A stretch of 64,000 bases of DNA from contig CDROCS010000983.1 in assembly GCA_977020255.1 (NCBI GenBank), forward strand, positions 186,001-250,000, read 5' to 3'. The notes below the pieces were generated by a model. That model was not told the origin of the DNA and ran no database searches. It saw nothing but the letters and a program-made list of their open reading frames with translations. Both the position numbers and the translations under genes were made by a program. Below, piece by piece: positions 6,255 through 34,779 of this stretch (the first letter of the stretch is position 1; each line of letters starts with the position of its first letter). Source of the DNA: Obrimoposthia wandeli (lineage: Eukaryota).

Positions 6255-7347
6255 CTACAATCGCTGACAAACCTCCCCTAATTGAATGGGAAGACAACTA
6301 TTTATATTAACAGTTGATGCTGGTGCTGCTGATGTTGAGGCAATCGCAGCTGATGTAGTAGGTGCTGCCGCATATGATGAGACGATGGCGCTTGTAGATG
6401 CTGCATTTGAGATTAGAGTAGATGAGGTAGTAGCTGGCATTGCCGACGGAGAAGCAGCTGTTGTAGAGGTTGATGATGCATCTGCTGAAATAAATATATT
6501 AAAAATATATATATTTTTAAAAATTATTACCTCTAAGGCGTACAAACATAGATGTAGGCACTCGCGATGGGGGAGGCATAGCAGTCGTAGCGGATGACGG
6601 CGTCGGCTGTATTTCCTGAAAAAAAAAAAATATATATAATTACAATTTTAAAAAATAGTCAGAAAATAGTAATAAAAAAATACCTACTGAAGGCAATCCC
6701 GCTGTAGCTGGTTGAAAGTCCTCTTCATTGACGGAATCCATCCAGCTGTCGTCTGTTAACTCGACGAAATCGGATTTCTCGATGGTCTCCAACCGTTGTC
6801 GCTCCACTGAGACTGCTCCATCTCGAAATCTGACGGGGTGATATTTTCGATCCAGTCATTGTTCGAGAATTGGATTGCTGGCGCCAACTCTTCAAAATCT
6901 TCTTTGGAGATGTCGTTCATTCACTCATTGTTAGTTATTTGAGTGGATGAGGCCACTGCAGAATCGGGAGACGGGAGAGAAGGACAAATCGCAGGACCGT
7001 AAACGGGTTGAATGGCTACAACTGGAACAGGGGCATGAGCTGTAGCGACATGTGAATCGCGCACCAATTGCACGATAGCCCCCTTTTTGTTGTTGACCGT
7101 GAAACCGGGTAGGTGATCTCGATGTTCACTGAAGAAGTCTCGAAGTCCTTCTCCTCCATAGTTCTGCAGAAGGGGCAGACGAAGAATACCCGTCCTTGAG
7201 ATTTTATCCGATAGTAGGCGGACATTATGTCCATGCAGGAATCTCATCCTTGCGGAGCCGAAGCACCACAATAAGCAGGGTATAGGTTACACGTAATCTA
7301 AAAAAATTAATATTAATAAAGAAATAAAAAATAAAGTTTCTTACCAT
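6255..7347 (-). pseudogene. Intron-containing gene/pseudogene: Cys-rich N-terminus, acidic Trp-containing repeats, Ser/Thr/Ala-rich tail
   Basis: ATG at 7347 followed by 47-nt GT-AG intron (7298-7344); further introns 6616-6683 and ~6482-6530; CxxC/CPFCR motifs; in-frame TGA at 7244-7246 and apparent frameshifts; TATATAAG upstream. Confidence 0.55.
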
Positions 7348-11830: not shown

Positions 11831-12406
11831 AATCCTGACCAATTTGTCGGCAGTTGGTATCTACTCGATCAGGTATTGTATCCAGTTTCTGAATATCTAC
11901 ATTAGCAATATGTATCACAACTTAGTATCCATCGACGTCACTGCATGTTACTCTTGATCACCACTTGAACAGTATGCAAGAGCTCATGATATTCATTGAC
12001 AACGAATGAACCTGCAGATCATCAACATGGCCAAGAAGCGCTTTTCTCAAACTTCAAAACTTACCATAATGTCGAGGCTTACGAACGGGTAGAAATACTA
12101 GTATCTTGTGGCTGAAGTCAAGTCGAGGCTGTTCGATTGGGCAGCCTACGTTAATATGGTCTCATTGGGTGCATGGGTTCCTGGTAATCAAACAATGACG
12201 TGATTCTTCGATACCTGGGCTTGTTGCAAGGATCAATCGATTCACTGGCTAAATACTATGCGAGCCTTAATCAAGTGAAGTGAAGAGACCTGGCACCTTT
12301 ATCACGATAGCAGTTACTCGGTGCCGACATTTAGACTCAGCCCCTAGCTTAACTTATCTTTTTCGAGACTCCTATCTCATTCTTCTCTTTCTTTCTCTTT
12401 CTAACA

Positions 12407-13807
12407 ATGGCAGAACCAGATGAATTCTTGGTATCGGTCAATGGAGACCCTGTTAAAGTAACGGGAATATTACCATGTACATTTATAATTGGACGTAATA
12501 CGATCACTATACCAGTTAGAATCATGAAAGAATGTCCTGAACCTACAATTTTAGGAATGGATGTATTATCACAACTTAAAGGGATAAGTATTGATTTACA
12601 AGATCCAAGATTGAAGGATAGCACATCAAACAGACAAATAAACCAAATTGATGTAATCATAGAGAATCCTATAAAAATCGGTAAAAGATCGCAATTTCTT
12701 ATTCAAGGTCACACATTATCAGAAGATAAAGGACCAGTTGTGTTCGAACCATCACGAGATTTCATAGAGAAATACGAATTACCAGTTGTGAGTACAGTAT
12801 GCCTGATCGAAAATCACAAAATACCAGTTAGACTGATGAATACAACCAACAATGACATCCTATTATACAGAGGAATGAGGTTGGGAAAGATAGCACAGAT
12901 GGAGAATCCCACCGTGTGTGCTATGAAACTCGATAAAGATACGAACGATTACGAAGAAATAGTAATCCAATCAGAAAGACTGACAACTAGAGAAAAGAAA
13001 CAATTACTTGATCTAATACATAAATTTCCGAAAGTAATTGCAAAAAATCCATATGACATAGGAGAAACACCTGTCATAAAACATACAATACCACTGACAG
13101 AAGACAAAGTAGTCAGAAGAAGACCATATCGAGTACCATTACAATTACAAGATGAAGTAAAAAGTCAGATTGAAGATATGTCTAAAACAGGAGTAATTAG
13201 ACCGAGTTTTTCGCCATTCTCAGCACCTGTGGTGTTGGTAAAAAAGAAGGATGGGAAAATGAGATTCTGTATAGATTTCAGAGAACTGAACAAGATCACA
13301 AGAAAAGATGTGTATCCATTACCTAGAATCGAAGAGATGCTCGATAAATTGGGTAATTCAGATTATTTTACGACATTGGATTTGCAGAGTGGATACTGGC
13401 AAATCGAGATAGAGGAAGAGGATAAACACAAAACAGCCTTTTCCTGCGGAGATGGATTATACGAATGCGAAAAGATGCCATTCGGACTGACAGGAGCTCC
13501 AGCAACATTTCAGCGTTGCATGAATTTTGTACTCGCATCGTGTGCAAACACGATGGTTTATATCGATGACATAATAATATTTTCGAAAACGTTCGAAGAA
13601 CATTTAAAAAATCTTGAAGTTGTATTTAAAAGACTGGAAAATGCTAAATTAAAAGTTAAACCTACAAAATGCGTATGGGCTAAAGAGCGAGTAACATTTT
13701 TAGGACATATAGTATCGAAAGAAGGCATTCGACCTGATCCGGCAAAGATCGAGAAAGTAAAAGCGCATTTAGCGCCAAAGACTGTTAAAGAGATACAGAG
13801 TTTTTAG
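12407..13807 (+). CDS. pol: Pol, N-terminal part: retropepsin C-terminal half, dUTPase-like spacer, reverse transcriptase
   Basis: SVNGDPVKVTG flap and ILGMDVL; RRRPYRVP, PFSAPVVLVKKKDGKMRFCIDFRELN, LDLQSGYWQI, MPFGL, YIDD; ends at a 1-nt frameshift in T5 (13801-13805) where QSFLGLANYYRRF is expected. Confidence 0.95.
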   Translation: MAEPDEFLVSVNGDPVKVTGILPCTFIIGRNTITIPVRIMKECPEPTILGMDVLSQLKGISIDLQDPRLKDSTSNRQINQIDVIIENPIKIGKRSQFLIQGHTLSEDKGPVVFEPSRDFIEKYELPVVSTVCLIENHKIPVRLMNTTNNDILLYRGMRLGKIAQMENPTVCAMKLDKDTNDYEEIVIQSERLTTREKKQLLDLIHKFPKVIAKNPYDIGETPVIKHTIPLTEDKVVRRRPYRVPLQLQDEVKSQIEDMSKTGVIRPSFSPFSAPVVLVKKKDGKMRFCIDFRELNKITRKDVYPLPRIEEMLDKLGNSDYFTTLDLQSGYWQIEIEEEDKHKTAFSCGDGLYECEKMPFGLTGAPATFQRCMNFVLASCANTMVYIDDIIIFSKTFEEHLKNLEVVFKRLENAKLKVKPTKCVWAKERVTFLGHIVSKEGIRPDPAKIEKVKAHLAPKTVKEIQSF

Positions 13808-13863
13808 GTCTTGCAAATTATTATAGACGATTTGTTGAACATTTTTCAGATATAGCAACACCA

Positions 13864-16800
13864 TTGAGAAAGTTGACGAGAAAAGATGAGAAGTTCATAT
13901 GGGGAGAAGAAGCCCAACAAGCGTTCGAGCATTTAAAAGAAAGATTGATAAAAGCACCAATATTAGCGTTTCCAGATATAAACCGACAATTCATACTTAT
14001 GACAGATGCAAGTAACTATGCTGTAGGAGCAGTATTGGGACAAGAGGATGACGAAGGAAGAGAACACGTCATCGCGTATGCGAGTAGAGGATTAAACAGA
14101 GCCGAAAGAGGATACTCTGTTATCGAAAAGGAATGTCTAGCCATAGTGTATTCGTGTAGACAGTACAGACACTATTTGCTAGGACAAAAAGTATTCCTGT
14201 ATACAGATCACAAACCACTACAGTTCTTATATAAACATAGAGATGAGATGAGTAGATTAAACAGATGGTTTCTAAAATTGGCCGAATTCGATCTAGAAAT
14301 CCGTTATAGAACCGGAAAGTCGAACGGCAACGCAGATTGTTTATCGAGATTGACAAATGTAGACGAGAAAGGAAACATAATTCCAGAAGAAGATGAAACC
14401 AATGACCAAAAAGGAGAAGCAAATCTACTGACGATTTTGCTAAAGACGGGTAAAATAGACAAAGAGATCATCAAAGAACAGAAAGAAGACGAAGAACTGA
14501 GTCTAATCAAAGAATTGTTGGTGAAAGGAGATCTAAACGATGAAATGACGAAAAAATACTCGATAAAAGAAGGAATCTTGTATATTGTCAATAATGTCGG
14601 AAAGATAGTAGTAGTAATTCCGAAGTCATTGAAACCAGCAGTGATGATCCAGTATCACGACGGAACACTAGGAGGACATCTGTCAGGGCGAAAGACAATA
14701 GCCAGAATCAAAGAGAAGTACCATTGGGATGGTATGGAAGACGACATAAAACAATGGTGTAAACAATGTAAAGTATGTTTAACCAGAAAAGACACCGGAA
14801 CTCGTACTAAAGTTCCGTTGAAACCAATGCCAGTTCCTTTGGCACCAATGGAATTCACAGCGATGGATATATTGGGACCATTGAGAGAATCAAGTAAAGG
14901 AAACAAGTATGTCATAGTATTTACGGATTACATGACGAGATGGGTAGAAGCATATCCCATGCAGAACCAGAAAGCTGAAACAATAGCGCAAATCTTAGTA
15001 GAAGAGATAATATTTCGATACGGAGTGCCTAGAAAGTTGTTAACGGATCAAGGTAAGAACTTCACTGGAGAAGTCATAAAAGCAGTATCGAAGATATTCG
15101 GAATCATGAAGTTACAAACTTCACCATATCACCCACAGACAGATGGTCTGGTAGAAAGGTTTAATAAAACTTTATGTATGATGGTACAATCCTATTGCTC
15201 AGATAAGCAAGAGGATTGGGATAAATATTTACCTTCATGTTTATATGCTTACAGGAATTCAGTTCGAGAGGCGACAGGTCACACACCATTCTATCTGATG
15301 TATCTCAGACAGAACAATATGCCAATGGATCTGGAATGGACCGAGCCAACATCTCAGTACCTAGAAACTGAACAATACATTGTCGTCATGAAGGAAAGGT
15401 TACAAGATGCTTGGACCAAAGCCGGATTGAAGTTGAAATTCAATCAAGAAGGTTACAAGGAACAATACGACAAAAAAGCAAAACCGCATGAATTTAGAGT
15501 CGGAGATCAAGTGATGATATTTTATCCAGTCATCGAACCAGGTCTATCGTTTAAACTTCATAGACCATACAAAGGACCATACAAGGTGATCCAGACAACC
15601 TCAACAAATTTGAAAGTAATCAACGAAGAGAATCGGAACAAGGAACCGATGATTGTACATGCAAATCGATGCAAATTAGTACCAAATAAAGATAATGCGT
15701 CACGATATGAGTTAAGATCACAGAAATCGAAATCGAATACCAATACCATTAAACTTACACGAATGGTAAGTGATCGGAACTACATAAACACGATGACGAG
15801 TGGTAGCGAGGAAAAACCAGCGAGAATTGGTATGCTCAGAATGAAGTACCAAGAGGAAAAGGAAGTAATCCGACACATCGCACCACAAGAGATATTAGAA
15901 GAAGACGAAGAGATAATAGTTGTTTTCGAAAAAACACAACCAACAGATGTGGCGAAAGAAGTCATTGTGAAAGATGCACTGACAAACGAATTTCTATGCG
16001 AACTTAGAGTGTCATACTACGACGGAAATACATTAGTCGCATCACTATATCAAAATTCCAATGTGTTTACGACTGAGAAAGTGATAATCGAAATCACATT
16101 GACACCAAACATAGTTGCATGGCAGAACTATGACAATACTGAAGCAGGACTAGCCAGTCAGGAAGAGAAGGAACCGGCCGGTGGTCACATACTGCATGGT
16201 ACACCAAAAAGACTCAAACAAGAATACCACGATGTAATAATGGTATTACGTAATTCACATGGGAAAAGAGATATCATGAGAGTCCATTTAATCGACGCTG
16301 ACACTGAAAAGATAATTTGTCAGATGGACACCAAATACTTTGATGGAAAGACAATTGTATGTTGTATACCAGAATCTCACCGATTAGAGACAGATCAAAC
16401 GGAAGTATCTGTAAGGTTGAGCGTAATAGAAGGATTCCATTCGCCAACCCATCCGGAAGTGACTAACAATAAAATCATCAAAGCAACGGCAGAGTTACGC
16501 ATTGACAGCGGATACCGGAAGTGGGAGGCTAAAAATAAAAAGCCACAAAGAATCAATATGATCCGAGAACAAGTGACCAACTCAATCCAGCCAAAATATC
16601 ATGCTGAAATAGTATCATCCGCGCCAAGTGTAATCACATCGATAAACGACGAAATTATAATTTTACTAAAAAATCGATGGCCGTCATCAACCGAGATACG
16701 AGTAAATTTAATTAATTATGCGAAGACACCGATATCTAAGCTGAATGTTACCTATTTTGATGGATTGTCCATCATGGGTAAATTAGAAACAATTGTCATG

Positions 16801-17280
16801 TGCTATGGAGCACAGTTCCAAGTTGAGATACTTAAAGATAGTGTAATACCGTATCCGATTCACAAATACGAAGGGGAAATCAATCCAATTATTCTAACAC
16901 CTTCATTAATTTCAGTTCAGACAGACATACCAGAATACCCTTCGAGCGAGTCTAGTGAAGACAGCGAACCGGAAAGTAACGATACAGAATCAACAGAATC
17001 CGAAGATAACATAATAGAGCGATTCGGAAGAACCATGGAGATTGAATTCGCTAAAGAGAGCAGAAAAAGACAAAACATAGAATTCGTGAAACAGAATATA
17101 CAAGAAAGACGAATTAAATCTGCAGAGGAGACCGAGTCGGAAGAAGACTCAACAAAGGAACAGACATCAGAGACAAAGATGAATATCCCTCCAGCAATAC
17201 GAATGCTGAGAGGAAAGAAACTGGCAAAACTAACTAACATCGACGAACAGATAGAAGAGATTAGAAAGACTAAAACTTGA
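13864..17280 (+). CDS. pol: Pol, C-terminal part: RT connection, RNase H, integrase (HHCC, DDE, GPY/F) plus ~500-aa extension
   Basis: TDASNYAVGAVL, EKECLAI, TDHKPL; H-x6-H...C-x2-C; MDILGPL, TDQGKNF, GLVERFNKTL; YKGPYKV; frame is open from the frameshift at ~13806. Confidence 0.95.
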   Translation: MRKLTRKDEKFIWGEEAQQAFEHLKERLIKAPILAFPDINRQFILMTDASNYAVGAVLGQEDDEGREHVIAYASRGLNRAERGYSVIEKECLAIVYSCRQYRHYLLGQKVFLYTDHKPLQFLYKHRDEMSRLNRWFLKLAEFDLEIRYRTGKSNGNADCLSRLTNVDEKGNIIPEEDETNDQKGEANLLTILLKTGKIDKEIIKEQKEDEELSLIKELLVKGDLNDEMTKKYSIKEGILYIVNNVGKIVVVIPKSLKPAVMIQYHDGTLGGHLSGRKTIARIKEKYHWDGMEDDIKQWCKQCKVCLTRKDTGTRTKVPLKPMPVPLAPMEFTAMDILGPLRESSKGNKYVIVFTDYMTRWVEAYPMQNQKAETIAQILVEEIIFRYGVPRKLLTDQGKNFTGEVIKAVSKIFGIMKLQTSPYHPQTDGLVERFNKTLCMMVQSYCSDKQEDWDKYLPSCLYAYRNSVREATGHTPFYLMYLRQNNMPMDLEWTEPTSQYLETEQYIVVMKERLQDAWTKAGLKLKFNQEGYKEQYDKKAKPHEFRVGDQVMIFYPVIEPGLSFKLHRPYKGPYKVIQTTSTNLKVINEENRNKEPMIVHANRCKLVPNKDNASRYELRSQKSKSNTNTIKLTRMVSDRNYINTMTSGSEEKPARIGMLRMKYQEEKEVIRHIAPQEILEEDEEIIVVFEKTQPTDVAKEVIVKDALTNEFLCELRVSYYDGNTLVASLYQNSNVFTTEKVIIEITLTPNIVAWQNYDNTEAGLASQEEKEPAGGHILHGTPKRLKQEYHDVIMVLRNSHGKRDIMRVHLIDADTEKIICQMDTKYFDGKTIVCCIPESHRLETDQTEVSVRLSVIEGFHSPTHPEVTNNKIIKATAELRIDSGYRKWEAKNKKPQRINMIREQVTNSIQPKYHAEIVSSAPSVITSINDEIIILLKNRWPSSTEIRVNLINYAKTPISKLNVTYFDGLSIMGKLETIVMCYGAQFQVEILKDSVIPYPIHKYEGEINPIILTPSLISVQTDIPEYPSSESSEDSEPESNDTESTESEDNIIERFGRTMEIEFAKESRKRQNIEFVKQNIQERRIKSAEETESEEDSTKEQTSETKMNIPPAIRMLRGKKLAKLTNIDEQIEEIRKTKT

Positions 17281-17293
17281 AGAGTCAGAATTA

Positions 17294-17791
17294 ATGCCAC
17301 AAATGAGTGAGATCATTCCAGGTAAGTTGTACCTCGGAAATGTGGAGGATGCAACAGATGAAAAGAAACTGTTGGAACAAGGGATAACATATGTGATCAA
17401 CGTTACAATGAATCACAAATCGCAATATCAGACGATCAGAGCTATGACATTAAGAGTAAAAGACTCAATGGATGCTAATCTTCTCGAATGGTTCGTAGAA
17501 ACAAACGAAATACTTCACAGAGAACTCCGAAACCAAGGAAAAGTGTTGGTACATTGCCAGAAAGGAATTTCTCGATCAGCAACTCTAGTATTAGCATATC
17601 TAATAAAGACTAGACGAATGCAGGTACTAGAAGCGCTAAAATACCTACAGGAGAGAAGAAGTATTGCAAACCCAAATCTTAATTTTTGGGACAGTTGGCA
17701 AATTACCAACTTCTGTTGCAAGAACAAAGACGGATGGACGACATTCCTGAGGATCCAAAGGAAAAGAATTTCCTCCAAGCATTATCACTGA
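17294..17791 (+). CDS. Dual-specificity protein phosphatase domain (catalytically intact motif), frameshifted into the next ORF
   Basis: SEIIPGKLYLG, VINVT, general-acid D in VKDSMDANL, HCQKGISRSAT (HCx5R), AYLI, NPNLNF; adding 1 T at 17683-17687 gives NFLGQLANYQ continuing into 17686-20133. Confidence 0.9.
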   Translation: MPQMSEIIPGKLYLGNVEDATDEKKLLEQGITYVINVTMNHKSQYQTIRAMTLRVKDSMDANLLEWFVETNEILHRELRNQGKVLVHCQKGISRSATLVLAYLIKTRRMQVLEALKYLQERRSIANPNLNFWDSWQITNFCCKNKDGWTTFLRIQRKRISSKHYH

Positions 17792-20133
17792 CTGGGTTAT
17801 TTTTAGCCGGAGTCGATAAAATTACACAGATAATGCCAAAAGTATTTTTATGTCATCCAGGAGATATAGATACTGCTGGATTAAAGTTCCATAGTATCAA
17901 CCGAGTAATCAACATTGTTGAAGTCGGAAACGAAATAATTAGTCTGTGTCAAAATACTGAAGATGACACCACTCGATACATACATGCTTCCAATCGAGAG
18001 ATAAACGATGCACAACAACATCTGACGAAATTGACTCAAACCATCCAAGCTGAAGTCACAGAAGGAAACGGCGTTCTGATATATCAGAAAAAAGGTACAA
18101 TGTTAGCGCCTACCATAGGTGTATCCTTGTTGGTAGAGTACCATGGTCACACGCCAGAAGAAGCAATGGTCTACATCAAACAGAATAGACCGAATACGGA
18201 ATTCAAACCGTTACTCGTTCGAGAAATAGAGAAATACACCGAAAAGAGGAAACAACAACGAGAAACAAATGAAGCTACAACAACAGTGCCCAGCTTTCAA
18301 TACCAAAGATTGCTAGCGATAGGCTTGTTAAGTTGTTTAATGCCGATAACGGGAGCACAGGAGATAGGCTCCAACCACGGAAATAGTTCCTGGTTCAACG
18401 AAATCCACAATTACACCATAAAGTACCATACACCGGCACTGATGATGTTATTAGTGTTGTTAGAACTAATTGATGTATGGATCATCCGAAAATGTCTTCG
18501 ATCTATGAGAACCGACAGTAAAAGATTTCAGTTTGTAAAGATGAAAAGACCAAATGGACCAACAAACAAAGTGCTTGTGTATCTAGACGAAAGGATCGAG
18601 GACAACATAGTAAATGAAGCGATATTTTACCCACAAAACAGAATACTGAATCAATTTCGAATAGATTACGAAGCTGACCGACAGCGCACACTTGACCAAA
18701 TATCAACAACATTCGCTGGATGCAAGCAGAAGAAAACGAGTTGTAAAGGAAATACAAAAGATGCTGATACAAAAGGACCAACGTATATATTCGATGGCGA
18801 TGTCATCAAAACACGTGAGTATGGAAGTAAAAGAGTGATAATTGAAACAATGGAAGGACATAAAACATGCTTGTCCGCCAAAAATGGATTCGGAAAGTTG
18901 ACGATACAAGGTAAACCAGTACAGTTGATTATCGGACGAGATGGAATCGAGGAAATGTCAAAACAACGACAGACAACAAAACGAACCAATCAGAAACAGA
19001 TATCTCTCAAACGATTGATAATTAAAACCCTTTGCAAAAGGTCAGTCAAGGCCCTGTGCACCGTTGCACAAGGATTGATTTATGGAGTAGTAATTGGATT
19101 GGTACTGCAAGCCATGCCAACCAGTAAAGCCGAATTGATGACACTATCCGAATATAATTTACATTTGAGAAATCTAGACAACACCCTAGAAATAATCAAG
19201 ACATCCCACAGTAGAGCCGTGATGATCATGTGTGTAAAAGGATGTCCAGGACGAATGTGTATAGTCCCAGCGACCGAAATGATAACACTTAATGGACATT
19301 ATGGAGTTAGTGTTGTCACATGTGAAGACTACATATTTGGACAAACTAAAATAGTGCTTCTCAGTGACATGTCCAACCAAAGTGCACACAAATTTAAAAT
19401 ATTAACCATCAAGAGTAAAGGAATACCAGCAGTACGTTACGGTATTCTAGAATTGGTTAATCCAATACTCGCACTGATCATTGGATTTATAATATTAATA
19501 TTACTCATCTTGTTTTGTTGTTCAAAGATAGAGTCGAGATCAAAAAAGAAACGTCATGATCTCGCAAGACGAACAGGTCAAATGAACTTACAAAAATTCA
19601 ACACAATTATACCAAGACCACCATTTTTAGATGAACCAGCACCAGAGTACCAGCCAACGATATACGAACACATCGAGGAAAGACCGTACTATATGAGTAA
19701 TTTGACTTGTTTCATTGAAGTTCCTGAGTTTAGGAATCGAACGATCATAGGAATCATGCTGATCGTACAAATCACCACTACCAAGGCTAGTTATGAGATC
19801 ATGATCAGTAAATGGAGACAAGACGTAATACGGGCAATATACATAGAAATTCCCCTACTAAAAACAAATCACGTAGTAGACATTCATCTACAGACGTCAG
19901 CAACTGACAATATCGATCAGAAATTGTATGTCATTCGACAGGTCAGAATAAAAATCGACCAAGATACACCCGTTTACAATTTAATATTATTGCATCATGA
20001 AAGAGTGTTATACCTACGGATAACAATATCAAAGAGGAAGCGGATTATCCAAAGTATCCGAACAAAGTCATTAATATTACCTAGAGATGAGCGCATCTGG
20101 AAAAATTGTCGACAGGATTATGATCACAGGTAG
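17686..20133 (+). CDS. Accessory polyprotein: pseudo-DSP domain followed by signal-peptide/ectodomain/TM modules
   Basis: 17821-18237 aligns by eye with the DSP (ITQIMPKVFL; YQKKGTML in place of HCQKGISR); hydrophobic segments at 18307-18357, 18436-18486, 19075-19131, 19465-19521, 19741-19788. Confidence 0.75.
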   Translation: MGQLANYQLLLQEQRRMDDIPEDPKEKNFLQALSLTGLFLAGVDKITQIMPKVFLCHPGDIDTAGLKFHSINRVINIVEVGNEIISLCQNTEDDTTRYIHASNREINDAQQHLTKLTQTIQAEVTEGNGVLIYQKKGTMLAPTIGVSLLVEYHGHTPEEAMVYIKQNRPNTEFKPLLVREIEKYTEKRKQQRETNEATTTVPSFQYQRLLAIGLLSCLMPITGAQEIGSNHGNSSWFNEIHNYTIKYHTPALMMLLVLLELIDVWIIRKCLRSMRTDSKRFQFVKMKRPNGPTNKVLVYLDERIEDNIVNEAIFYPQNRILNQFRIDYEADRQRTLDQISTTFAGCKQKKTSCKGNTKDADTKGPTYIFDGDVIKTREYGSKRVIIETMEGHKTCLSAKNGFGKLTIQGKPVQLIIGRDGIEEMSKQRQTTKRTNQKQISLKRLIIKTLCKRSVKALCTVAQGLIYGVVIGLVLQAMPTSKAELMTLSEYNLHLRNLDNTLEIIKTSHSRAVMIMCVKGCPGRMCIVPATEMITLNGHYGVSVVTCEDYIFGQTKIVLLSDMSNQSAHKFKILTIKSKGIPAVRYGILELVNPILALIIGFIILILLILFCCSKIESRSKKKRHDLARRTGQMNLQKFNTIIPRPPFLDEPAPEYQPTIYEHIEERPYYMSNLTCFIEVPEFRNRTIIGIMLIVQITTTKASYEIMISKWRQDVIRAIYIEIPLLKTNHVVDIHLQTSATDNIDQKLYVIRQVRIKIDQDTPVYNLILLHHERVLYLRITISKRKRIIQSIRTKSLILPRDERIWKNCRQDYDHR

Positions 20134-20596
20134 ACGACGTAAAGCCGTATGGAATTCCGTTAGGTTATTTTTCAGATTGCTAGAAACTGACAGCGTGACA
20201 GTAATGTGTCCCAACCCAGATGGCGTAATCAGATTCGAAATCCAAAGCCAAATGTTAGTACCACATTTCAACACAGAATGTCTGTGTAATCGAATTGCCA
20301 GTAATTCTACAGAGACCTCGACCATAATCATGATAATAACAGGTGAAATATTCTACATAACTCTAAGATACCAGAACCGTCGATTTCGTAGATACGGTAT
20401 AAGTATCAAACCCAGGAAAATCATTCCCAAAAGACCAAGCCTCGTCATACAGAAGGCAAAAGTAAACGAAAGTAAACGACATTCCAAGAAACCGACAGTG
20501 ATCAAAACAAAGACAGAAGCGAAAGAAAAAGAGCTAAATCCCAGAAACCAAAGTACAATTATTAAGAGGACAAGAGTGAGGGAACGATCCCACTAG
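20087..20596 (+). CDS. Probable frameshifted continuation of the accessory polyprotein
   Basis: Overlaps both neighbours; same A-rich codon style; no recognisable domain. Confidence 0.5.
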   Translation: MSASGKIVDRIMITGRRRKAVWNSVRLFFRLLETDSVTVMCPNPDGVIRFEIQSQMLVPHFNTECLCNRIASNSTETSTIIMIITGEIFYITLRYQNRRFRRYGISIKPRKIIPKRPSLVIQKAKVNESKRHSKKPTVIKTKTEAKEKELNPRNQSTIIKRTRVRERSH

Positions 20597-20973
20597 ATCC
20601 AAAACATCATTTTCAATCCAAAATAATAATACCTGTTCCACCAGAAACAAAACACCCAAATCCCCGAATTTTTAGAAAATCGGACATAATACATGGAAAC
20701 CGATCAAAACCCATGGAAATGTCATTCGAACCGACAAACAACAAAATGAAGTATGATTATAAATCATCAGACAGCGGAATAACAGCGGTCAATGCCCTAA
20801 TTGGAATGGCCGTAGTGTCAACAGCAGTGGTTTTATTGACAATCGTGTGCGTAAAAGGCAGTCAAGTATGCCCAGGAATACGACGAAAATGCGAAGGATT
20901 GCGATGCTGTGACACACCCATCATGGAGGAAGTGGAATTGCGACCCTTACCTCCGCCTCCCATCAAGATATGA
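20566..20973 (+). CDS. Terminal segment with TM helix and Cys/Pro-rich tail (ATG at 20713; frame open from 20566)
   Basis: ALIGMAVVSTAVVLLTIVCV (20794-20853) followed by CPGIRRKCEGLRCC and LPPPP. Confidence 0.6.
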   Translation, partial: EDKSEGTIPLDPKHHFQSKIIIPVPPETKHPNPRIFRKSDIIHGNRSKPMEMSFEPTNNKMKYDYKSSDSGITAVNALIGMAVVSTAVVLLTIVCVKGSQVCPGIRRKCEGLRCCDTPIMEEVELRPLPPPPIKI

Positions 20974-21096
20974 TGAGTCAGAGGAGGTTGTAGATAAATT
21001 AGTGTGTGAAATATGTAGAAATATCTAGAAGCGATTGTACAAATAGTAGAAGTATATAAAACTCATGTAGAAATTAATCATCATCATGTATTTAGA

Positions 21097-21396
21097 ATGG
21101 CCGAAGAATGCCCAATATGTTTAGAAGATCTAACCGAACGAAGAACAAGACCCGAAACCTGCAACCATTTACACCACGAGGAATGTTTATCGACATGGAT
21201 CAGAACTTATGGACAGTTCGGACACCCAACATACCCTCGTTGCCCTATATGCAGAAGACAATTCGCAAGATTCGTCATGTTAGAACCCAACCAAAGGGAT
21301 GTATATGTACAGGTGGTATTCTGCTGGAAGAATTTCGGAGAGTGTTGGTGTTATTACTGTTTGTCAGATCGACAAAATCAGACCATTTTTGTGTAA
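21097..21396 (+). CDS. RING-H2 protein 1 (putative E3 ubiquitin ligase)
   Basis: CPIC...CNHLHHEEC-LSTW...CPICR = C3H2C3; extra C-x6-CWC-x2-C motif. Confidence 0.9.
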   Translation: MAEECPICLEDLTERRTRPETCNHLHHEECLSTWIRTYGQFGHPTYPRCPICRRQFARFVMLEPNQRDVYVQVVFCWKNFGECWCYYCLSDRQNQTIFV

Positions 21397-21456
21397 AGAT
21401 CACACAACCACCAGTCCTCAATCGAGCCCAAATTCAACATCAACCCTCCCACAGTA

Positions 21457-21762
21457 ATGTCTGGAGAATGTTCCATCTGCTACGAGAGCATCGTGGACTT
21501 CTACACCAAGCCCAACAACTGCGACCACCTTTTCCACGTCGAATGCCTCGAGACGTGGATCCCCATCGCAAACAGCAACAACCCTCTCGACTTCCCAACC
21601 TGCCCGATGTGCAGAGCGACCTTCTCAGTACACTACGTGTACAACCAAGACAGCCTCCAAGCAGTGGTACCCATCGTACACTGCTGGAAAACCATCTGCG
21701 ATTGCTGGTGCTCGTTCTGCGTGGAGGAGCGAAGCACAGGCCAGCCCAATCCCCAACAATAA
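21457..21762 (+). CDS. RING-H2 protein 2 (putative E3 ubiquitin ligase)
   Basis: CSIC...CDHLFHVEC-LETW...CPMCR; extra HCWKTICDCWCSFC motif, paralogous to RING 1. Confidence 0.9.
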   Translation: MSGECSICYESIVDFYTKPNNCDHLFHVECLETWIPIANSNNPLDFPTCPMCRATFSVHYVYNQDSLQAVVPIVHCWKTICDCWCSFCVEERSTGQPNPQQ

Positions 21763-22095
21763 TCGAAGGTAACTTTCTGACTTGAACGTGACATCATGAA
21801 CTACCCTGTGTATCGCATACCGCGATAAATTAGCTACCATAATTGTAATCATAATTATAGAATCTTGTGAACTGTAAATTGACCATTACCATTTTTATGT
21901 ATGATGTTTAACTGAAATTGTAATTATTATACTGAATTTCTAAAAAAGACAATTTTTATGCTTAGTGTGAATGCGTAAACATGCCTAAAATCGAAACAAA
22001 ACTCGGTAGGATTAGATAACTAAGGATTCATTTTGAAATAAAATTTAAATTAACGATGAGAACGGTGAACCCCAAATTGAAGGAGTCATTTTCTC

Positions 22096-22632
22096 ATGCA
22101 GATGTTGTGCTCCGTATGCATGGAGAAGATTTGGGCGGTATCAGCATCCCCTGTCGGCTGCCGTCACAAATTTCACGAGGAGTGCCTCTATTTGTGGACC
22201 AAGGTTCGAACCTCCGGACAAATCACCTGTCCACTGTGCCGGACACCCTTCGCCAAATGGACACTCCAGAGCCGCGGAAGACACAAAGGCACCCGATCGC
22301 CTGCCAGCTGCATTGGTGGCATCCATTGCCAATGCTACGTGTGTCTCGCACGCCGGCGCGACACACAACTGGGCGTCCGCGAGAGATGGCGGTCTAGTCG
22401 AGACTGCCACTCGTGGTTCCAGGCCAGACGGCACTGGATTGAAAGCCATAACATGAACGGGCAGCAGTTCGACCTATTCATCGACAGCCCGCATTTGACC
22501 CGGAGCCAGCAACTCCATTTGTACAACGGGGACAGTCCGTCCTTTCCCGACCTTCCCCTGGAGCAGGTTCTACGCTACCTGACCAGTCGGAACCAGCCGA
22601 CAATAACAATTGACCTGACACATGAAAACTGA
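22096..22632 (+). CDS. RING-H2 protein 3 with C-terminal SIM-like motif
   Basis: CSVC...CRHKFHEEC-LYLW...CPLCR; CIGGIHCQCYVC; ends ITIDLTHEN. Confidence 0.85.
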   Translation: MQMLCSVCMEKIWAVSASPVGCRHKFHEECLYLWTKVRTSGQITCPLCRTPFAKWTLQSRGRHKGTRSPASCIGGIHCQCYVCLARRRDTQLGVRERWRSSRDCHSWFQARRHWIESHNMNGQQFDLFIDSPHLTRSQQLHLYNGDSPSFPDLPLEQVLRYLTSRNQPTITIDLTHEN

Positions 22633-23362
22633 CACTGTCCTCCCTTCTTTCCTTCCTAATCTGTAATTTTGTGTGTAAATTTTTAGTTGTGTATAAATAA
22701 TAGTGTATGGTTTGAGACTTGCTCCAAATTATATATTATGTTTCCCACTGGAAAACCGAGATTTTGAAAAAATTTTTTTGGGCATGTTTGTTGAAGTTGA
22801 ATGATTGATTTTGTAGGGATGAACCTAAAATCAACAGCCAAGGGCTTATTTAAGTAAAATCGATACGTTCCGGGGACGTAACTTTTTTGGAACCCCCGAG
22901 GTATGTTAAGGTTGAGAATTAAGAAAATTAAATATTTTAGTTGATTAAATACTAAAATAAAAATCCTTGAAAGCAAGGTCGAAAATTAAATTAAAATATT
23001 AATTTGAGTTTTAGAAGTAAAATTAGTGAAATATTAGGGTAAAATTAGGAGGACCACGAAGGTCGTGTATTATGCGAAAATATATAAAAGTTTAAAGTTA
23101 ATTAACAAAAGGGACAAAAATAAGAATTTAATTAAAAGAAAAACGGTTAATTAAAACCGTCAATCAAGAAAGAAAAAGGTAAGCACATTTTCGTGCAGTA
23201 AAATCAATTTAATTCTTTTCAGCTGTCGTTGACTGACAGGAAGAATTGAGATAGCCTCTGCTCCAGCAAATAACCGTCAATCAAGGAAAAAGTGAGCGCA
23301 TTTTGTGCAGTCAATAATTTTTAAATTTATTTCAGCTGTCGTTGACTGACAGGGATAGAAGC

Positions 23363-23370
23363 TATAAAAG
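23363..23370 (+). promoter_or_regulatory. TATA box in LTR U3
   Basis: TATAAAAG followed ~25-35 nt later by TCA-containing initiator-like sequence. Confidence 0.55.
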
Positions 23371-23436
23371 GCAGAGGATTTGGACACCAATTCACAATCA
23401 CAAATTCAGAATCACTCCCTGACTACAGGTTGAGCG

Positions 23437-23633
23437 GAATAGACTCAATCCGAAAATAACGAATAGACTCAATCCGAAAATAACGAATAGACTCAATCCG
23501 AAAATAACGAATAGACTCAATCCGAAAATAACGAATAGACTCAATCCGAAAATAACGAATAGACTCAATCCGAAAATAACGAATAGACTCAATCCGAAAA
23601 TAACGAATAGACTCAATCCGAAAATAACGAATA
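23437..23633. repeat. 24-bp tandem repeat GAATAGACTCAATCCGAAAATAAC x8 (perfect)
   Basis: Eight identical units counted from 23437 to 23628 plus a partial. Confidence 0.95.
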
Positions 23634-23764
23634 AAATATATCCGAATAGCCGCGATCCAACATATTAGGAGAAGACGATCTCACGAGCGCTCCATACGGA
23701 ACTGCGTCGGACAGCTCACCCGTACCGGAATCAGCGAGTCACTGGTAAGAACACAGACTAGGTT

Positions 23765-24202
23765 CATTCATTGCCCCTAGTAGGCAATTAGGATATATTC
23801 ATTACCCCTAGTTGGTAATTCTATATTTTCTTAATAATACACAAATTCATTGCCCCTAGCTGGTAATTAGGATCACTGCCTCTTTACCACAATCATTGCC
23901 CCTAGTTGGTAATTAGGATCGGACCTTTATTCATTGTCCCCAGCGACAATTAGGAAACCTACCAGACGTTTTTTCCCGTAAGATTCATTGTCCCTAGCTG
24001 ACAATTAGGTTCATTCATTGCCCCTAGTTGGTAATTCGGATAAATATTCATTGTCCCTAGTAGACAATTCGGTAAGACTCATTGTCCACTAGCTGACAAT
24101 TCGGTTCGTTCATTGTCCGTAGTTGACAATTAGGAGTAAGTTTTTATTGTCATCTTGACAATTAGGTTTTTAGGAGATCCCTTGTCTACAGTAGACAATT
24201 TG
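23765..24202 (+). repeat. Array of 12 hairpin-forming repeats (ATTGYC-N5-8-GRYAAT) with variable spacers
   Basis: Copies at 23770, 23801, 23849, 23895, 23933, 23987, 24017, 24050, 24081, 24112, 24146, 24181. Confidence 0.9.
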
Positions 24203-24471
24203 GGTCAAACACACACAGAGAGAGTAAGGAACAAAGAAACATTTAGCTAGAGATAAGAAGTAGGAGCGAAGAAATTTAAGAGAGTTGCGTTATAGATTAA
24301 CCAACCTGAGTAAGAAGACTAAACCTAAGAAACTTAATCACCTGAACGTAAAATCGATACGTGGTTCATCCCCACTTCTTGTAGAGACTCACAGAAGTCC
24401 TTTAGGAATTTTATCATACTTTTTAGAAATACGTACATAAACGTATTGTGGTGTTAGTTACGTGAATTTTG

Positions 24472-24477
24472 AATAAA
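24472..24477 (+). terminator. Polyadenylation signal in LTR
   Basis: AATAAA followed by conserved ATTTCCTACATTAG; same arrangement at 28316 and 34569. Confidence 0.65.
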
Positions 24478-25429
24478 CAATTTCCTACATTAGAACAAGT
24501 TGTTTTTACACCCTTCAGACTAAGAGACATCAATCAAATACCTTCAGATAGTACAAGAGATTAGGCAACCATAACACTAAGTAGGCCACGACCAACTTTA
24601 AGACCTGCTTCTAATCGAACTCACGTTGGGGCCCTCCGCACACTAAGAGGCTCTATACCAAGTTTCGTATAGAAACCCCAACAATTTTATGACAAAATTA
24701 TATGAAATTCTTTATTATTTTCTTTAAACTAAAAGAAATATTTAAATTAAATTAATATAGATTTAGTCAATTTTACTGAAATATGTAAAGATTTTCAGTT
24801 TTTATTATTTATTTAGATTGTTGAATTAGTGTTTAATTATATTCTTTCATTTGTTTGATCTAAAATAGGGAGAATTTGACAATTGATGTACTACAAAATT
24901 GTGTTTACATTAAATATACATATATATATATATATATTGAACTATGGCATTTAAACAGTCCTCTCTTTTTTACTTAAGAGATAAATCTGAGATAATATTT
25001 TGATTTTATGTTTTCAATTTGTCATGTGATTTCAGTTAATCAAATTGAAAAGCTAAAATGGCTCCAACTGATCAATGTATTTTTATCGTTCCTCAATAAC
25101 TGTAAATATTACGTCGATAATTTTGTACAAAGAGTATGGATGTTTAAATTGCCTGTGACCTGTCAATTGATAAAACTCTACGTCCACTTACAAAATGAAG
25201 CGTACATGGCCTTCCTAAATCAGGTAGAACACAAATTTGTGATGAAAAGAAAGTTTAATACGATCTTTCTTTGTGTAAAATTCTAGTACATTAATAATAA
25301 AAACTTTCCATGAGCTACAAATCCCATATTACGGAATTAAATTACACGAAAGCGAGCTGGGTTAAAAGATTGCCGAATCAAATTGGTTCATGGACCAAAA
25401 GAAGATGAACATCTTGATGTGAAACGTAT

Positions 25430-26606: not shown

Positions 26607-28730
26607 AAAATTTATTGACTTTCATTATGAGAATATTAATCCATTCTGGAAATTACAATATGTGAAATTACAACACCTGATCATTTCTAATAAGTTGTAG
26701 TGTTTGAGTTCCTATTACGTTTTAAAATCATTTATTATATCTATAAACAAAAATTTATTGACTTTCATTATGAGAATATCAATCTGTTAGGATTAGGATT
26801 CTAATAATTAATGAAAATAATTAATTATTATATAGTGGAATAAATCCTTGAAAGCAAGGTTAAAAATAATATAAAATTGAATTGGAATTTTAAAAAAAAT
26901 GAAATAAAAAGGTATTTTAGGACCTTGAGGAGGTCAAGTGTTTGGTGCGTGATATATAATGGATTTTATAAATTTCAAAGTGCCCAAAAAGGATTTAGCA
27001 AGAAAAACCAAAGCAATTAAGAAAATAAGATTAATTAGGAAAGGCACTAAAGAAAGAAGAATTAAGTGCTACAAGAAGTAGGACATTGCAGCAAATAAAA
27101 TCACAGTAGCCGACTGGCTGAGAATTAGCCAGCCGGCAAGAACTTTGCAACAGTTGAGTGCTGTCTCCAGACTTTGGGAAGTGGCCAGCTGACAACAAGC
27201 GAGGTAAGAATCACTTAGTTAAGTGGCATTAATTTATTCTATTATCTAGGAGATATAACGAAGCAGAGTAGCGTAGTCGCGACACAAATTAAGTATCGTC
27301 GATAGAATCCGAGCACACCAGAGATATTCGAGCACATCCGGCAAAAGATATTTGATTATTCAGAAAAGCAACTGAAGAAAAAAGAAGGTAGAATACTGCA
27401 TACCAGACAGAATTACTTGATTATTCCCAGAAAAAACCTACTGCTATCACCGAAGCCGAGCTTTCCTATCGGGATCAAGAAACGCCAAGACTGGACAGCG
27501 GTCAGAACGGAATCGGATCAAGCCTGTCCAGCAATCGGTCGGAACGAGTCTGTTCAGCGGGCAATCAGATCTAGTCTATCTGACAATCAATCGGATCGGA
27601 CGAAAACGACACGAGGCAATTCATCTCACAAGTCGTCTCTGCGGAATCGGATTAAGAATATCCAGCGGTCAACCGGATCGAGTCTATCCAACAATCTATG
27701 CGAAGGACGGTAAGAGCAGAGTGTGAAAGTGTAAAAGTAAATTGCCCATATTTGTCTCATATTTTACCAAAGGTAAATTGGTTTGATTTGGTAGTGATAA
27801 AGATTAAAAGAAATTTTTAAAATAAGATTGAATATCAGCCCTCGTAAAAACAAGTTGAAATAATTTTAAAAGAAGTTTGTAAAATAAGATTGAATATCAG
27901 CCCTCGTAAAAACAAATTGAAATAATCTTAAAATAAGTTTTTAAAATAAGAAGTTCAATAAAGTGTTGAATTTAGAAGGTGTGTTAAAATTAAAGTTAGG
28001 ATATCAAAGAGTATAATTGTCGCGAATAAATGAACTCTACCAAAGATATCAAAGTAAATTGCCCCATATTTGTTCCATATTTGAGAGTGTTAACTCAGTA
28101 TAAAATCAAACCATATTTTTAGAGCAACCAGCTCTATAAAATCTACAACCTTAAATTACCCATATTTTTAGAGTAAAGACTCTAGTAAACAAACGACCCT
28201 CAATTAAAATCGATACGTGGACCATCCCCACTTGTGTAGAGACTTTGTGAAAAGTAACTAGGATTAGTCTTGTGGTTTTTAGAACGTGTTAGAACGTAAT
28301 TTCGTGTGTATTAGAAATAAAGATTTCCTACATTAGGCAGTGTTGTATTGAACAGAACCCTTGCAAGCAAGTAAGTGTCAACTACTCCATATACAACACC
28401 ACATTAAGGGAATTTTCCAGTACCCGTATACACAGCTCTTCACACATTTCGCAACACCTAGACATAATAAACCTTCAGATAGAAATTGAGATAGACAAGC
28501 ACAACTTAAGTAGGCTACAAACAACTACAAGCCCTGCTTCTATAGAACTCACGTTGGGGCCCTCCATCTGAGGATCTATATCTAAACTCCAAGGCAGTTT
28601 CATAGAGAAACCCCAACAAATCCATTCTGGAAATTACAATATGTGAAATTACAACACCTGATCATTTCTAATAAGTTTGTAGTGTTTGAGTTCCTATTAC
28701 GTTTTAAAATTATTTATTAAATCTATAAAC
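26607..28730. repeat. 143-bp tandem duplication whose second copy is split by solo LTR B
   Basis: TTTATTGACTTTCATTATGAGAATAT at 26611 and 26754; sequence resumes AATCCATTCTGG at 28619. Confidence 0.85.
26785..28618 (+). mobile_element. Solo LTR B (1834 bp)
   Basis: TGTTAGG...CCCCAACA with 4-bp TSD AATC (26781-26784, 28619-28622); shares ATCCTTGAAAGCAAGGT, AAAATCGATACGTGG and U5 end with LTR A. Confidence 0.9.
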
Positions 28731-32815: not shown

Positions 32816-34779
32816 TGTTAGGTTTAGGAATTAGAAAATTAAAATAATTAGTCGATTTTATACTAAAATAAAAATCCTTGAAAGCAAGGTTGAAAATTAA
32901 ATTAAATATTAATTTTAAAAATCAAAACTAAAATTATTGAAATTAAGATAAAAATTAGGAGGACCACGAAGGTCGTGTATAGTGTGGAGTATATAAGGTT
33001 AGAATTAATTACTAGTAAAGTGCAAAAGGGAACAATATAGAAATCTGCCAACGTCAGCAGAAAAAAGAAAAACTACTAACGTCAGCAGAAAGGTAACCAA
33101 TTAATAAAACATCTGTCAATTACTGATATTTAAGGAATCAGTTGAATTGACAGGCAGGCAGAAAAACCCAGTGACAATTAGGATCGGTCGAAGCAGCAAC
33201 CGGAGCAACAGGCAGGTGGTAATTTAGTGGTAGTGCTCGTTTAATTGATTTTTAGATCCCATTCCAAAGTCGACTGTGCAAATTATTTAAAAGAGACATT
33301 TAACTGGAAAACCCAACGACAATCAAAGTCGACTGTGCAAATTATTTAAAAGAGACATTTAACTGGAAAACCCAACGACTAGAAAAATCCATCGAATTAC
33401 TAAGCAGCGGATCCAGTGCCGGAGTATACCCACAGTTGCGGATAGGTGAGACGATTCGAATATTCATTGTCCCTCGTTGACAATTAGGATTGTAAATTGT
33501 CTCGAATATTCATTGTCCCTCGTTGACAATTAGGATTGTAAATTGTCTCGAATATTCATTGTCCCTCGTTGACAATTAGGATTGTAAATTGTCTCGAATA
33601 TTCATTGTCCCTCGTTGACAATTAGGATTGTAAATTGTCTCGAATATTCATTGTCCCTCGTTGACAATTAGGATTGTAAATTGTCTCGAATATTCATTGT
33701 CCCTCGTTGACAATTAGGATTGTAAATTGTCTCGAATATTCATTGTCCCTCGTTGACAATTAGGATTGTAAATTGTCTCGAATATTCATTGTCCCTCGTT
33801 GACAATTAGGATTTAATTGTCTCGCATATTCATTGTCCCTCGTTGACAATTAGGATTTAATTGTTTCGCATATTCATTGTCCCTCGTTGACAATTAGGAT
33901 TTTTGTCTCGCATATTCATTGTCCCTCGTTGACAATTAGGATTTTGTCTCGCATATTCATTGTCCCTCGTTGACAATTAGGATTTTTGTCTCGCATATTC
34001 ATTGTCCCTCGTTGACAATTAGGATTTAATTGTCTCGCATATTCATTGTCCCTCGTTGACAATTAGGATTTTTGTCTCGCATATTCATTGTCCTTCGTTG
34101 ACAATTAGGTTCACGAAATCATTGTCCATCGTTGACAATTAGGTTTTATACGAATCATTGTCCACAGTTGACAATTCGCGTTTGAATTCACAACAATAGA
34201 ATTTGCCGAGTTAAGAAAGCTTTACCCACACGATCTAAGTTAAGTTGAAGAAGTTTTAGGAGAGTTGTGTTATAAATTAACCAACCTAGAAAGAAGATTT
34301 GCATTCGCACCTTTATTGTCATAAGAATAAAGGTTTAACCTCCAAAATTCAAGCCGATAGCAAAGTTAAATTATTGAGAAATCTGTAGCGCGAGCTTATT
34401 CTCGAGTTAGAAGAATAACTCTAAAATCTCGATCACCCCGAACGTAAAATCGATACGTGGTTCATCCCCACTTGTTGTAGAGACTTACAGAAGTCTTAGG
34501 AACTTTTAATATATTTTTTAGAAAATACGTACATAAACGTATTGTTGTGTTTAGTTTCGTGAATTACCAATAAACGATTTCCTACATTAGAACAAGTTGT
34601 TTTTGCACCCTTCAGATTAAGAGACGTCAAAACAAACACCTTCAGATAAGAAAGAGAGATAGGCAACTATAACACTAAGTAGGCCACGACCAACTTTAAG
34701 ACCTGCTTCTATTCGAACTCACGTTGGGGCCCTCCACATTCAAGAGGATCTGTACAAGTTTCGTATAGAAACCCCAACA
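32816..34779 (+). mobile_element. Solo LTR C (1964 bp)
   Basis: TGTTAGG...CCCCAACA with 4-bp TSD AAAT (32812-32815, 34780-34783); ends closely similar to LTR A; 60-bp internal duplication at 33264-33380. Confidence 0.92.
33458..34175 (+). repeat. Tandem array of 17 hairpin repeats (core CATTGTCCCTCGTTGACAATT), 46-bp unit degrading to 44/42/41 bp
   Basis: Cores at 33463 then every 46 nt to 33785, shorter spacings afterwards; ATTGTC/GACAAT inverted arms. Confidence 0.95.

Follow-up and report, generated by a model that had tools for sequence, protein, structure and literature searches.

A Burro-like giant Ty3/gypsy retrotransposon family carries a phosphatase-pseudophosphatase pair under purifying selection

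Retrotransposons with long terminal repeats (LTRs) are commonly regarded as minimal gag-pol elements. Here we describe a Ty3/gypsy family from a 64,000-nucleotide stretch (the window) of the Obrimoposthia wandeli assembly GCA_977020255.1 (contig CDROCS010000983.1, positions 186,001 to 250,000), a 1.35-Gb assembly of 6,912 contigs. The window holds the 5'-truncated and frameshifted rear half of the family's element. An earlier reading of this DNA, made from the sequence alone (the sequence-only reading), had described separate accessory open reading frames (ORFs) behind the integrase; up to window position 20973 these are frameshifted parts of one pol frame of ~5,400 codons, and three RING-H2 ORFs follow it. 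The cargo, which includes a dual-specificity phosphatase (DSP) and a pseudophosphatase, is under purifying selection across three subfamilies, one RING-H2 ORF (RING1) excepted. To judge from its predicted domains, the front half matches the published plan of the planarian Burro elements (Gag-Env-Pol with an inhibitor-of-apoptosis (IAP) part). We consider it probable that this is an autonomous, Burro-like giant element whose captured signalling domains keep the host cell permissive.

Results

The family is an abundant, recently active Ty3/gypsy retrotransposon

A chain of ORFs from the window's ORF list spans 12353-22632 on the forward strand, and Pfam calls reverse transcriptase (RT), RNase H (RH) and integrase (IN) within 12353-17280. 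The sequence-only reading had recognised a Ty3/gypsy element here, and rightly so: by Pfam, the order protease (PR)-RT-RH-IN is that of Ty3/gypsy (Metaviridae), and LTRs, a primer-binding site (PBS) and many further copies were found. Its limits, 12362..24683, were correct at the end of the 3' LTR (24683), but the family match starts at 12403, where 39 of 39 other 5'-end matches begin; the window copy is therefore truncated inside a protease. The distance from the integrase end to the 3' LTR is ~7.2 kb, so that the accessory sequence, put earlier at ~6.8 kb, is real but was measured short. Flanking DNA has a GC content near 28%. The reading frame of the window copy is broken near ~13800, 17250, 17680, 18730-18760, 20100 and 20580. 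The features of the copy and of two solo LTRs downstream are as follows.

12403..13807, + strand: C-terminal half of the second aspartic protease, then RT (RVT_1, E 5e-39, Pfam)
13789..15690, + strand: RNase H and integrase (zinc-binding, core and C-terminal domains, Pfam); break near 13800
15850..16920, + strand: three beta-rich repeats in frame with the integrase, probably IPT/TIG Ig-like (a tentative assignment)
16920..17290, + strand: acidic linker, probably coiled; break near 17250
17294..17740, + strand: dual-specificity phosphatase DSP1 (DSPc), catalytic motif intact; break near 17680
17800..18260, + strand: pseudophosphatase DSP2 (weak DSPc match), predicted DSP fold, catalytic Cys and Arg absent
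18290..20973, + strand: polyprotein tail with four hydrophobic segments, small Cys- or beta-rich modules, a basic region and a Pro-rich end; breaks near 18730-18760, 20100 and 20580
21097..21396, + strand: RING-H2 ORF 1 (RING1), C-terminal Cys cluster; TATA-like motif at 21053
21457..21762, + strand: RING-H2 ORF 2 (RING2), C-terminal Cys cluster; GC content at third codon positions (GC3) 0.78
21096..21785, + strand: 229-codon open -1 frame over RING1 and RING2, possible overprinted gene
22096..22632, + strand: RING-H2 ORF 3 (RING3), Cys cluster and IDLT tail, presumably SUMO-interacting-motif (SIM)-like
22904..24683, + strand: 3' LTR of 1,780 bp (TG...CA); a 24-nt tandem array lies within it at ~23437-23652
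26785..28618, + strand: solo LTR, subfamily C (older), flanked by a 4-bp target duplication
32816..34779, + strand: solo LTR, subfamily B (sister), flanked by a 4-bp target duplication and with 46/44-nt arrays inside

Copies of the family are matches sampled in the assembly rather than a full enumeration. LTR pairs lie ~23 kb apart end to end, giving a family element of ~23 kb. Four two-LTR copies have LTRs of 1,710-1,902 bp (TG...CA) that differ within each pair at 0/1,730, 4/1,875, 21/1,705 and 70/1,747 bases, and 4-bp target duplications flank three of the four. In all four, the same PBS lies 8 nt after the LTR; it complements a single tRNA-Met(CAT)-like 3' end of the assembly, which ARAGORN does not call as a tRNA. 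Exact 24-mers were counted 7,262 times for LTR ends and 593 times for phosphatase loops, with reversed controls at 0. All 21 scored places for region 15600-23000 (the window's own included) match at 97-100%, 18 of them over nearly all of it, and a protein search with the two phosphatase domains gave 121 of 121 scored matches at ~100% without stops. Collectively, these results identify an abundant, recently active Ty3/gypsy LTR retrotransposon.

The window's two solo LTRs led to subfamilies B and C, which both carry the same cassette. Its order is that of subfamily A, which answers the concern that the window's cassette might be missing from other copies. A sequencing run from a different study, which bears the label marine metagenome, reaches 26 of 30 bins; 44 of 56 contigs are at least 95% alike there. 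The copies on many contigs, the three subfamilies and this further run rule out a one-off transduction or misassembly.

The tandem array inside the LTR differs from subfamily to subfamily (24 nt in A, 23437-23652; 46/44 nt in B, 33456-34176), which in part accounts for the variation in LTR length. A search for the subfamily C LTR combined with the PBS gave 0 matches. Adjoining a subfamily C copy, in the opposite orientation, is a different gypsy family (L056:3084-6389, - strand) with RT and integrase 47-50% identical to those of the window element.

The accessory ORFs belong to one giant polyprotein

One frame runs from the integrase to the stop at window position 20973 in 4 of 21 loci (2,153-2,291 codons); the other 17, one of which covers only part of this stretch, are frameshifted. 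Frames running through the phosphatase reach 4,895 amino acids (aa) among the 121 scored matches. In a 5' half, a frame of 2,708 aa extends from Gag to the protease, and the 5' half is one open frame in 1 of 6 subfamily A and 1 of 2 subfamily B stretches. By coordinates the whole polyprotein spans ~5,477 codons, ~5,360 from the first Met. The sequence-only reading thus stands for the three RING-H2 ORFs as separate genes and falls for the ORFs before them, which are pieces of the pol frame.

The domain order begins with Gag, putative ubiquitin-like and Bcl-2-like parts and Env. Next come a protease, BIR-BIR-RING and a second protease, and then RT, RNase H and integrase, followed by three IPT-like repeats, DSP, pseudo-DSP and four membrane segments; the three RING-H2 ORFs come last. 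The window lacks the 5' half, which codes for a CCHC Gag, a fusion glycoprotein and two aspartic proteases with BIR and RING between them. Its Env is of the chuvirus/Monjiviricetes type (Monjiviricetes_fusion, E 7e-66 and 7e-19 on two segments, Pfam) and has a membrane anchor. Pfam also finds BIR (E 3e-11) and RING (E 8e-12) in the 5' frame, and sub-domain scans add a second BIR stretch and a weak Retrotrans_gag match (E 0.007). The motif order recurs over ten 5' stretches, with BIR in 9, the IAP-type RING in 8 and the second protease in 10.

Twenty pairwise comparisons of copies contain 169 frameshifting indels, 52 of which touch runs of at least 4 bases against a background of 8%; some frame breaks may therefore be assembly errors. 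We considered programmed frameshifting between RT and RNase H and rejected it, as the frames of other copies span the junction. Open-frame lengths recur among copies (for example 1,610, 1,455, 1,722 and 2,395 aa), which means that the same break points recur; these may be homopolymer errors or mark defective sublineages.

The cargo, including a dead phosphatase, is maintained by selection

Ratios of nonsynonymous to synonymous substitution rates (dN/dS) were obtained between subfamilies A and B (21 x 3 copies, private changes left out, 39-63 pairs per region) and between A and C (one pair of copies). The A-B counts are small, with 2-17 synonymous changes per region except for 58 in RING3. For A-B and A-C, respectively, dN/dS was 0.03 and 0.06 in the integrase, 0.07 and 0.17 in the IPT-like repeats, 0.07 and 0.12 in DSP1, 0.05 and 0.15 in the pseudo-DSP, 0.16-0.43 and 0.29-0.50 in the tail modules, 0.04 and 0.24 in RING2, and 0.27 and 0.29 in RING3, where dS is ~1.0-1.1. 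The cargo is under purifying selection across the three subfamilies, with the exception of RING1 (see Discussion).

DSP1 (DSPc ~17327-17692, E 2e-33, Pfam) keeps the HCxxGxxR motif, which is present in 20 of 21 A loci (the remaining one being uncovered at this point), in 2 of 3 B copies and in 0 of 1 degraded C copy. Among the 60 solved-structure matches listed, its nearest is the catalytic domain of DUSP10/MKP5 (E 7e-25), and in the alignment to DUSP10 the HCx5R loop and the general-acid Asp are present. Viral DSPs such as poxvirus VH1 and baculovirus PTP are packaged in virions; none of the 60 matches listed is a viral DSP. DSP2 (~17845-18228) is a second, weak DSPc match (E 1.2e-5, Pfam), 21% identical to DSP1 and without the catalytic Cys and Arg. 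The sequence-only reading had described a dual-specificity phosphatase and a dead duplicate. DSP1 bears this out, and DSP2 is indeed predicted from its motif to be catalytically dead, but it has not decayed: it is as constrained as the active domain.

The pair has the catalytic fold and motif of mitogen-activated protein kinase (MAPK) phosphatases (MKPs) such as DUSP10/MKP5, together with a dead partner domain as in STYX-type pseudophosphatases. It differs from MKPs in being set in a retroelement polyprotein and in having no rhodanese domain; Pfam found no rhodanese or kinase-interaction-motif (KIM) docking domain in the window or the 5' frame. The best 150 matches among 1.84 billion representatives are all to the phosphatase part, at ~29-45% identity, and the repeats are never the best-matching stretch among them. 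Retroelement domains were found in 0 of 20 scanned DSP-matching proteins. Since its best relatives are only ~29-45% identical, the capture of the DSP appears to be old.

IPT-like repeats and membrane tail

Three mutually aligning repeats (20-27% identical) follow the integrase, as the sequence-only reading had described; their assignment to the IPT/TIG Ig-like domains is weakly supported. The atlas places them with TIG clusters at 0.89. In structural comparison of a model with a pLDDT of 54, the best match was a plexin (Z 6.7, root-mean-square deviation 2.8, 84 residues aligned), and plexin, Met, EBF, NFAT and Rel chains are among the top rows. The IPT identity is only a lead, given the model's pLDDT of 54 and because Z values under 8 are common. 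The repeats have no Pfam match, Foldseek with the model returned nothing at E <= 0.001, and sequence and profile searches against solved structures returned nothing under E 0.08. A single-sequence fold of all three repeats was unusable (pLDDT 38).

Four hydrophobic segments follow DSP2, in agreement with the membrane modules described earlier. The tail, 18290..20973, matches no Pfam or PHROG family; in PHROGs, 0 of 8 proteins of the element and window matched (RING2 among the 8 was queried in the wrong frame).

RING-H2 genes and an overlapping frame

All three RING domains match zf-RING_2 (E 5e-10, 8e-9 and 1e-7, Pfam) and read C3H2C3, confirming the three RING-H2 genes of the sequence-only reading; from these zinc ligands they are predicted to be of the ubiquitin-ligase type. 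A C-terminal C-x5/6-C-x-C-x2-C cluster is common to all three, and of 21 loci RING1 is open in 21, RING2 in 21 and RING3 in 20. GC3 is 0.78 in RING2 and 0.65 in RING3 versus 0.35-0.40 elsewhere. RING3 is the most divergent gene, only 61-70% identical in DNA between subfamilies, which suggests a separate origin or exchange. Its IDLT tail, which we take to be a SIM-like motif, occurs in one C copy and in 19 of 21 A loci but is absent from 3 of 3 B copies.

A 229-codon -1 frame over RING1 and RING2 is open in 24 of 25 copies (21/21 A, 2/3 B, 1/1 C). Under synonymous shuffles the frame stays open with P 0.009 for RING1 and 0.115 for RING2, and 0 of 22 control windows are open. The +1 frame is also open in RING2, the residues of the -1 frame are not preferentially conserved, and its product matches no family. 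The -1 frame is a possible overprinted gene.

Metagenomic relatives share the backbone and differ in cargo

An RT search and motif scan recovered metagenomic elements at 55-62% RT identity: P0173, P0174, P0183, P0186, P0187, P0190, P0284 and P0287, and the loci L064-L067. These 12 relatives and the window element form a clade of 13 with support 0.996 (FastTree, 121 rows, 270 columns) in a tree for which relatives were chosen by identity and which contains no named reference; four near-duplicate or fragment proteins were left out and four candidates were dropped for coverage. None of the 120 RT matches listed is a named Burro RT.

Where covered, the relatives are alike in having a single frame, Env before pol, two proteases and a signal/membrane tail after the integrase; in one, a single frame of 3,735 aa reads Gag-Env-PR-PR-RT-RH-IN-membrane tail. 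Their cargo differs: ankyrin and FN3- or Ig-like domains follow the integrase, and DEDD exonuclease ORFs are separate. No DSP, BIR or RING was found in the covered parts of the 12, most of which are partial. In L064-L067, all from one metagenome, ankyrin, FN3-like domains and membrane tails come after the integrase (in two, also a protease), with the DEDD exonuclease ORFs downstream.

Of the 5 metagenome loci that the RT motif scan yielded, 4 are related and the fifth is an unrelated GC-rich element. An Env word-index search returned 0 of 5,626 candidates at E <= 0.001, although relatives exist, and locus scans with the RT or Env alignment found nothing related in viral or metagenome contigs.

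The backbone follows the Burro and GAG-ENV-POL plan

Burro/GYPSM1 are giant gypsy elements of planarians (Jurka 2007; Grohme 2018; PMC6431247). As described by Arkhipova and Yushenova (PMC6431247), they exceed 30 kb and have one ORF of 4,873 or 5,140 aa with Gag, SUMO-like, Bcl-2-like, in-frame Env and PR-RT-RH-IN parts, as well as MATH, dUTPase, BIR and ankyrin. According to a Hydra paper that cites Lee 2026 (PMC13465017), and thus second-hand, the BIR and RING of Burro1 protect planarian stem cells from caspase-mediated death; the same source places the Burro expansion in Dugesiidae and Geoplanidae. An eLife survey (PMC13524379) describes nine flatworm gB-type elements, marine genera included, with a flatworm arrangement of GAG-ENV-POL, and finds GAG-ENV-POL HSV/gB-type errantiviruses in flatworms, nematodes and bryozoans.

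On these descriptions, Burro and the window family share a giant polyprotein, a Gag CCHC knuckle, an in-frame Env that stands between gag and pol, a BIR with a RING, copies in the thousands and a flatworm host, the last probable for the window family. Where Burro has its SUMO-like and Bcl-2-like parts, before Env, the window family has candidate ubiquitin-like and Bcl-2-like matches below cut-offs. The window family is smaller as an element (~23 kb vs >30 kb), encodes ~5,400 codons vs 4,873 and 5,140 aa and, unlike Burro as described, has two proteases flanking its IAP part. Pfam at E 0.1 found no MATH, dUTPase or ankyrin in its 5' frame or tail, where remote forms are possible. With the GAG-ENV-POL errantiviruses (PMC13524379) it shares gene order and Env class; by eye, the Env of a Schmidtea element in that survey's supplement has the same cysteine pattern and motif order. 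We therefore describe the family as of the GAG-ENV-POL gypsy type and Burro-like, a comparison made with Burro by description only. It is not filed as a Burro member because size and the MATH/dUTPase/ankyrin complement differ and its RT is not placed against Burro.

The IPT-like repeats, DSP, pseudo-DSP, membrane tail and three RING-H2 genes go unmentioned for Burro in PMC6431247, where the text on Burro has 0 occurrences of 'phosphatase'. The survey PMC13524379 describes no accessory domains: 'phosphatase' and 'RING' have 0 occurrences in the text, as do DSPc, phosphatase and zf-RING in seven supplements; the consulted parts of PMC8532177, PMC13238120 and PMC11410931 give no further domain detail. 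We found no paper on a gypsy-encoded phosphatase; more Burro domains, even a phosphatase, could be listed in Grohme 2018 and Lee 2026. The sequence-only reading had recognised no precedent for the combination in Metaviridae. Its backbone follows the published Burro/GAG-ENV-POL plan (PMC6431247, PMC13524379, on the parts seen), which was invisible in a window without the 5' half; the phosphatase/IPT/RING-H2 cargo appears new, being in no paper found and in none of the 12 relatives, most of them partial.

Other features of the window and the assembly

The window also contains a stop-free rhodopsin-like G protein-coupled receptor frame of 307 codons (54758-55681, - strand; no Pfam match, atlas 7tm_1 clusters 0.96) and an acidic 286-aa ORF (41862-42722, - strand; no Pfam or PHROG match) with repeated YIDLL/YIDLT motifs, which we take to resemble SUMO-interacting motifs. 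Short ORFs at 5796-8073 (- strand) have no Pfam match and are presumably pieces of a polymerase and an exonuclease of the Polinton/adintovirus type. Two related arrays of 99-100-nt repeats, oppositely oriented, lie ~50 kb apart (1655-2163 and 51146-51756), and a complex AT-rich repeat cluster occupies 52199-53398.

The assembly is mixed: cox1 genes of bacterial type and without stops are numerous in it, and two codes of animal mitochondria occur. Multi-copy mitochondrial-like segments occur in large contigs, and in two of these segments AAA stands for Asn and ATA for Ile (NCBI table 9), the code of rhabditophoran flatworms and echinoderms; one contig with such a segment also carries element copies. 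A second animal mitochondrial contig uses table 5. On the table-9 code, the element-bearing contig and the low flanking GC content, the host is probably a marine flatworm; the code and the marine label of the other study's run hint at a flatworm group other than Dugesiidae and Geoplanidae.

Discussion

We favour as probable an autonomous, Burro-like giant Ty3/gypsy element with captured signalling domains that keep the host cell permissive. In this proposal a ~21-kb LTR-to-LTR RNA would be read as one polyprotein. Cleavage by the two aspartic proteases, and probably also by signal peptidase where there are membrane segments, would release Gag, Env, RT-RNase H, integrase and the accessory proteins, each made at Gag-like levels because no programmed frameshift would be needed. 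The Bcl-2-like and IAP parts would block apoptosis. The phosphatase would act on stress or immune kinases, most likely MAPKs, by taking off their activating phosphates, and the pseudophosphatase and the IPT repeats would serve as a substrate trap or as adaptors. Shorter transcripts would yield the three RING-H2 proteins, which would be ubiquitin ligases directed against host restriction or silencing factors.

Several observations weigh against this proposal. No examined copy is open over the entire ~5,477-codon span. The ubiquitin (E 0.004) and Bcl-2 (E 0.066) matches, which lie before Env, are both below family cut-offs, and the IPT fold has a Z below 8, as is common. RING1, with dN/dS of 0.90 for A-B (~8 changes) and 0.57 for A-C, is at best a candidate for constraint. 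Because the DSP is missing the rhodanese/KIM docking domain found in true MKPs, its predicted substrate is a guess, and purifying selection speaks for a benefit to the element rather than for the identity of a target.

A bolder form of the proposal is possible, and we hold it only tentatively. The family would be an infectious, complex retrovirus-like Ty3/gypsy lineage of marine invertebrates, with the longest retroelement polyprotein that we found described. Here the active/pseudo phosphatase pair would suppress MAPKs, the IPT repeats would be Rel/NFAT-type decoys, a SUMO-targeted RING ligase would counter SUMO-dependent silencing, the -1 frame would be an overprinted gene, and a wider clade would swap its post-integrase cassette much as large DNA viruses do their accessory genes. 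The sequence-only reading had also proposed a complex-retrovirus-like element; the Env-type fusion protein encoded by full-length copies fits such a lifestyle, and the transfer between cells and the modulation of kinase signalling and protein degradation that it also put forward may follow.

It is rather unlikely, but deserves weight, that the cargo serves the particle, with the phosphatase acting on Gag, integrase or Env tails in assembly and the IPT, membrane and RING modules acting in trafficking, budding and turnover of element proteins, a role comparable to that of poxvirus VH1 and baculovirus PTP in their virions. Cargo in frame with Gag-Pol would be co-packaged, the DSP has no MAPK docking domain and the signal/membrane tail is kept in relatives. 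The Bcl-2-like and IAP domains, however, point to host targets, and the 12 relatives have the same backbone without DSP, BIR or RING in their covered parts, which suggests that these domains are not needed for the core cycle. We assign a low probability to a mutualism at the level of the host, in which the cargo would be kept for the animal's benefit (stem-cell survival, regeneration) and the element would spread under host tolerance. The second-hand Burro1 precedent, the very high copy number with conserved cargo and the probable flatworm host are in keeping with it, but the selection was measured between transposing subfamilies and is fully explained by the element's benefit; no single domesticated locus was seen, and none was sought.

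That host genes were transduced once and carried as neutral passengers is very improbable. Most copies are frameshifted (17 of 21 loci, one partial), as this would predict, but dN/dS of 0.04-0.50 outside RING1 at dS up to 1.1 largely refutes it, and the in-frame, intronless fusion and the age of the DSP capture (relatives ~29-45% identical) also speak against it. An assembly artefact or one-off chimera, which the mixed assembly (bacterial and two animal cox1 types) and the 52 of 169 frameshifting indels at runs of at least 4 bases (8% background) might suggest, is refuted for the architecture by the same order on many contigs, in three subfamilies and in another study's run (26 of 30 bins).

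Burro is a giant family with anti-apoptotic cargo that matters to its host; the window family would extend such cargo to kinase signalling and ubiquitin, apparently outside freshwater and land planarians. It also brings evolutionary evidence for the maintenance of cargo, the dead phosphatase included, that is missing from the accounts of Burro found, on the parts seen. Single domains such as the DSP, the pseudo-DSP and RING-H2 are small and easily assayed. Together, the shared backbone and exchangeable cargo of the relatives open the path from retroelement to complex virus to comparative study.

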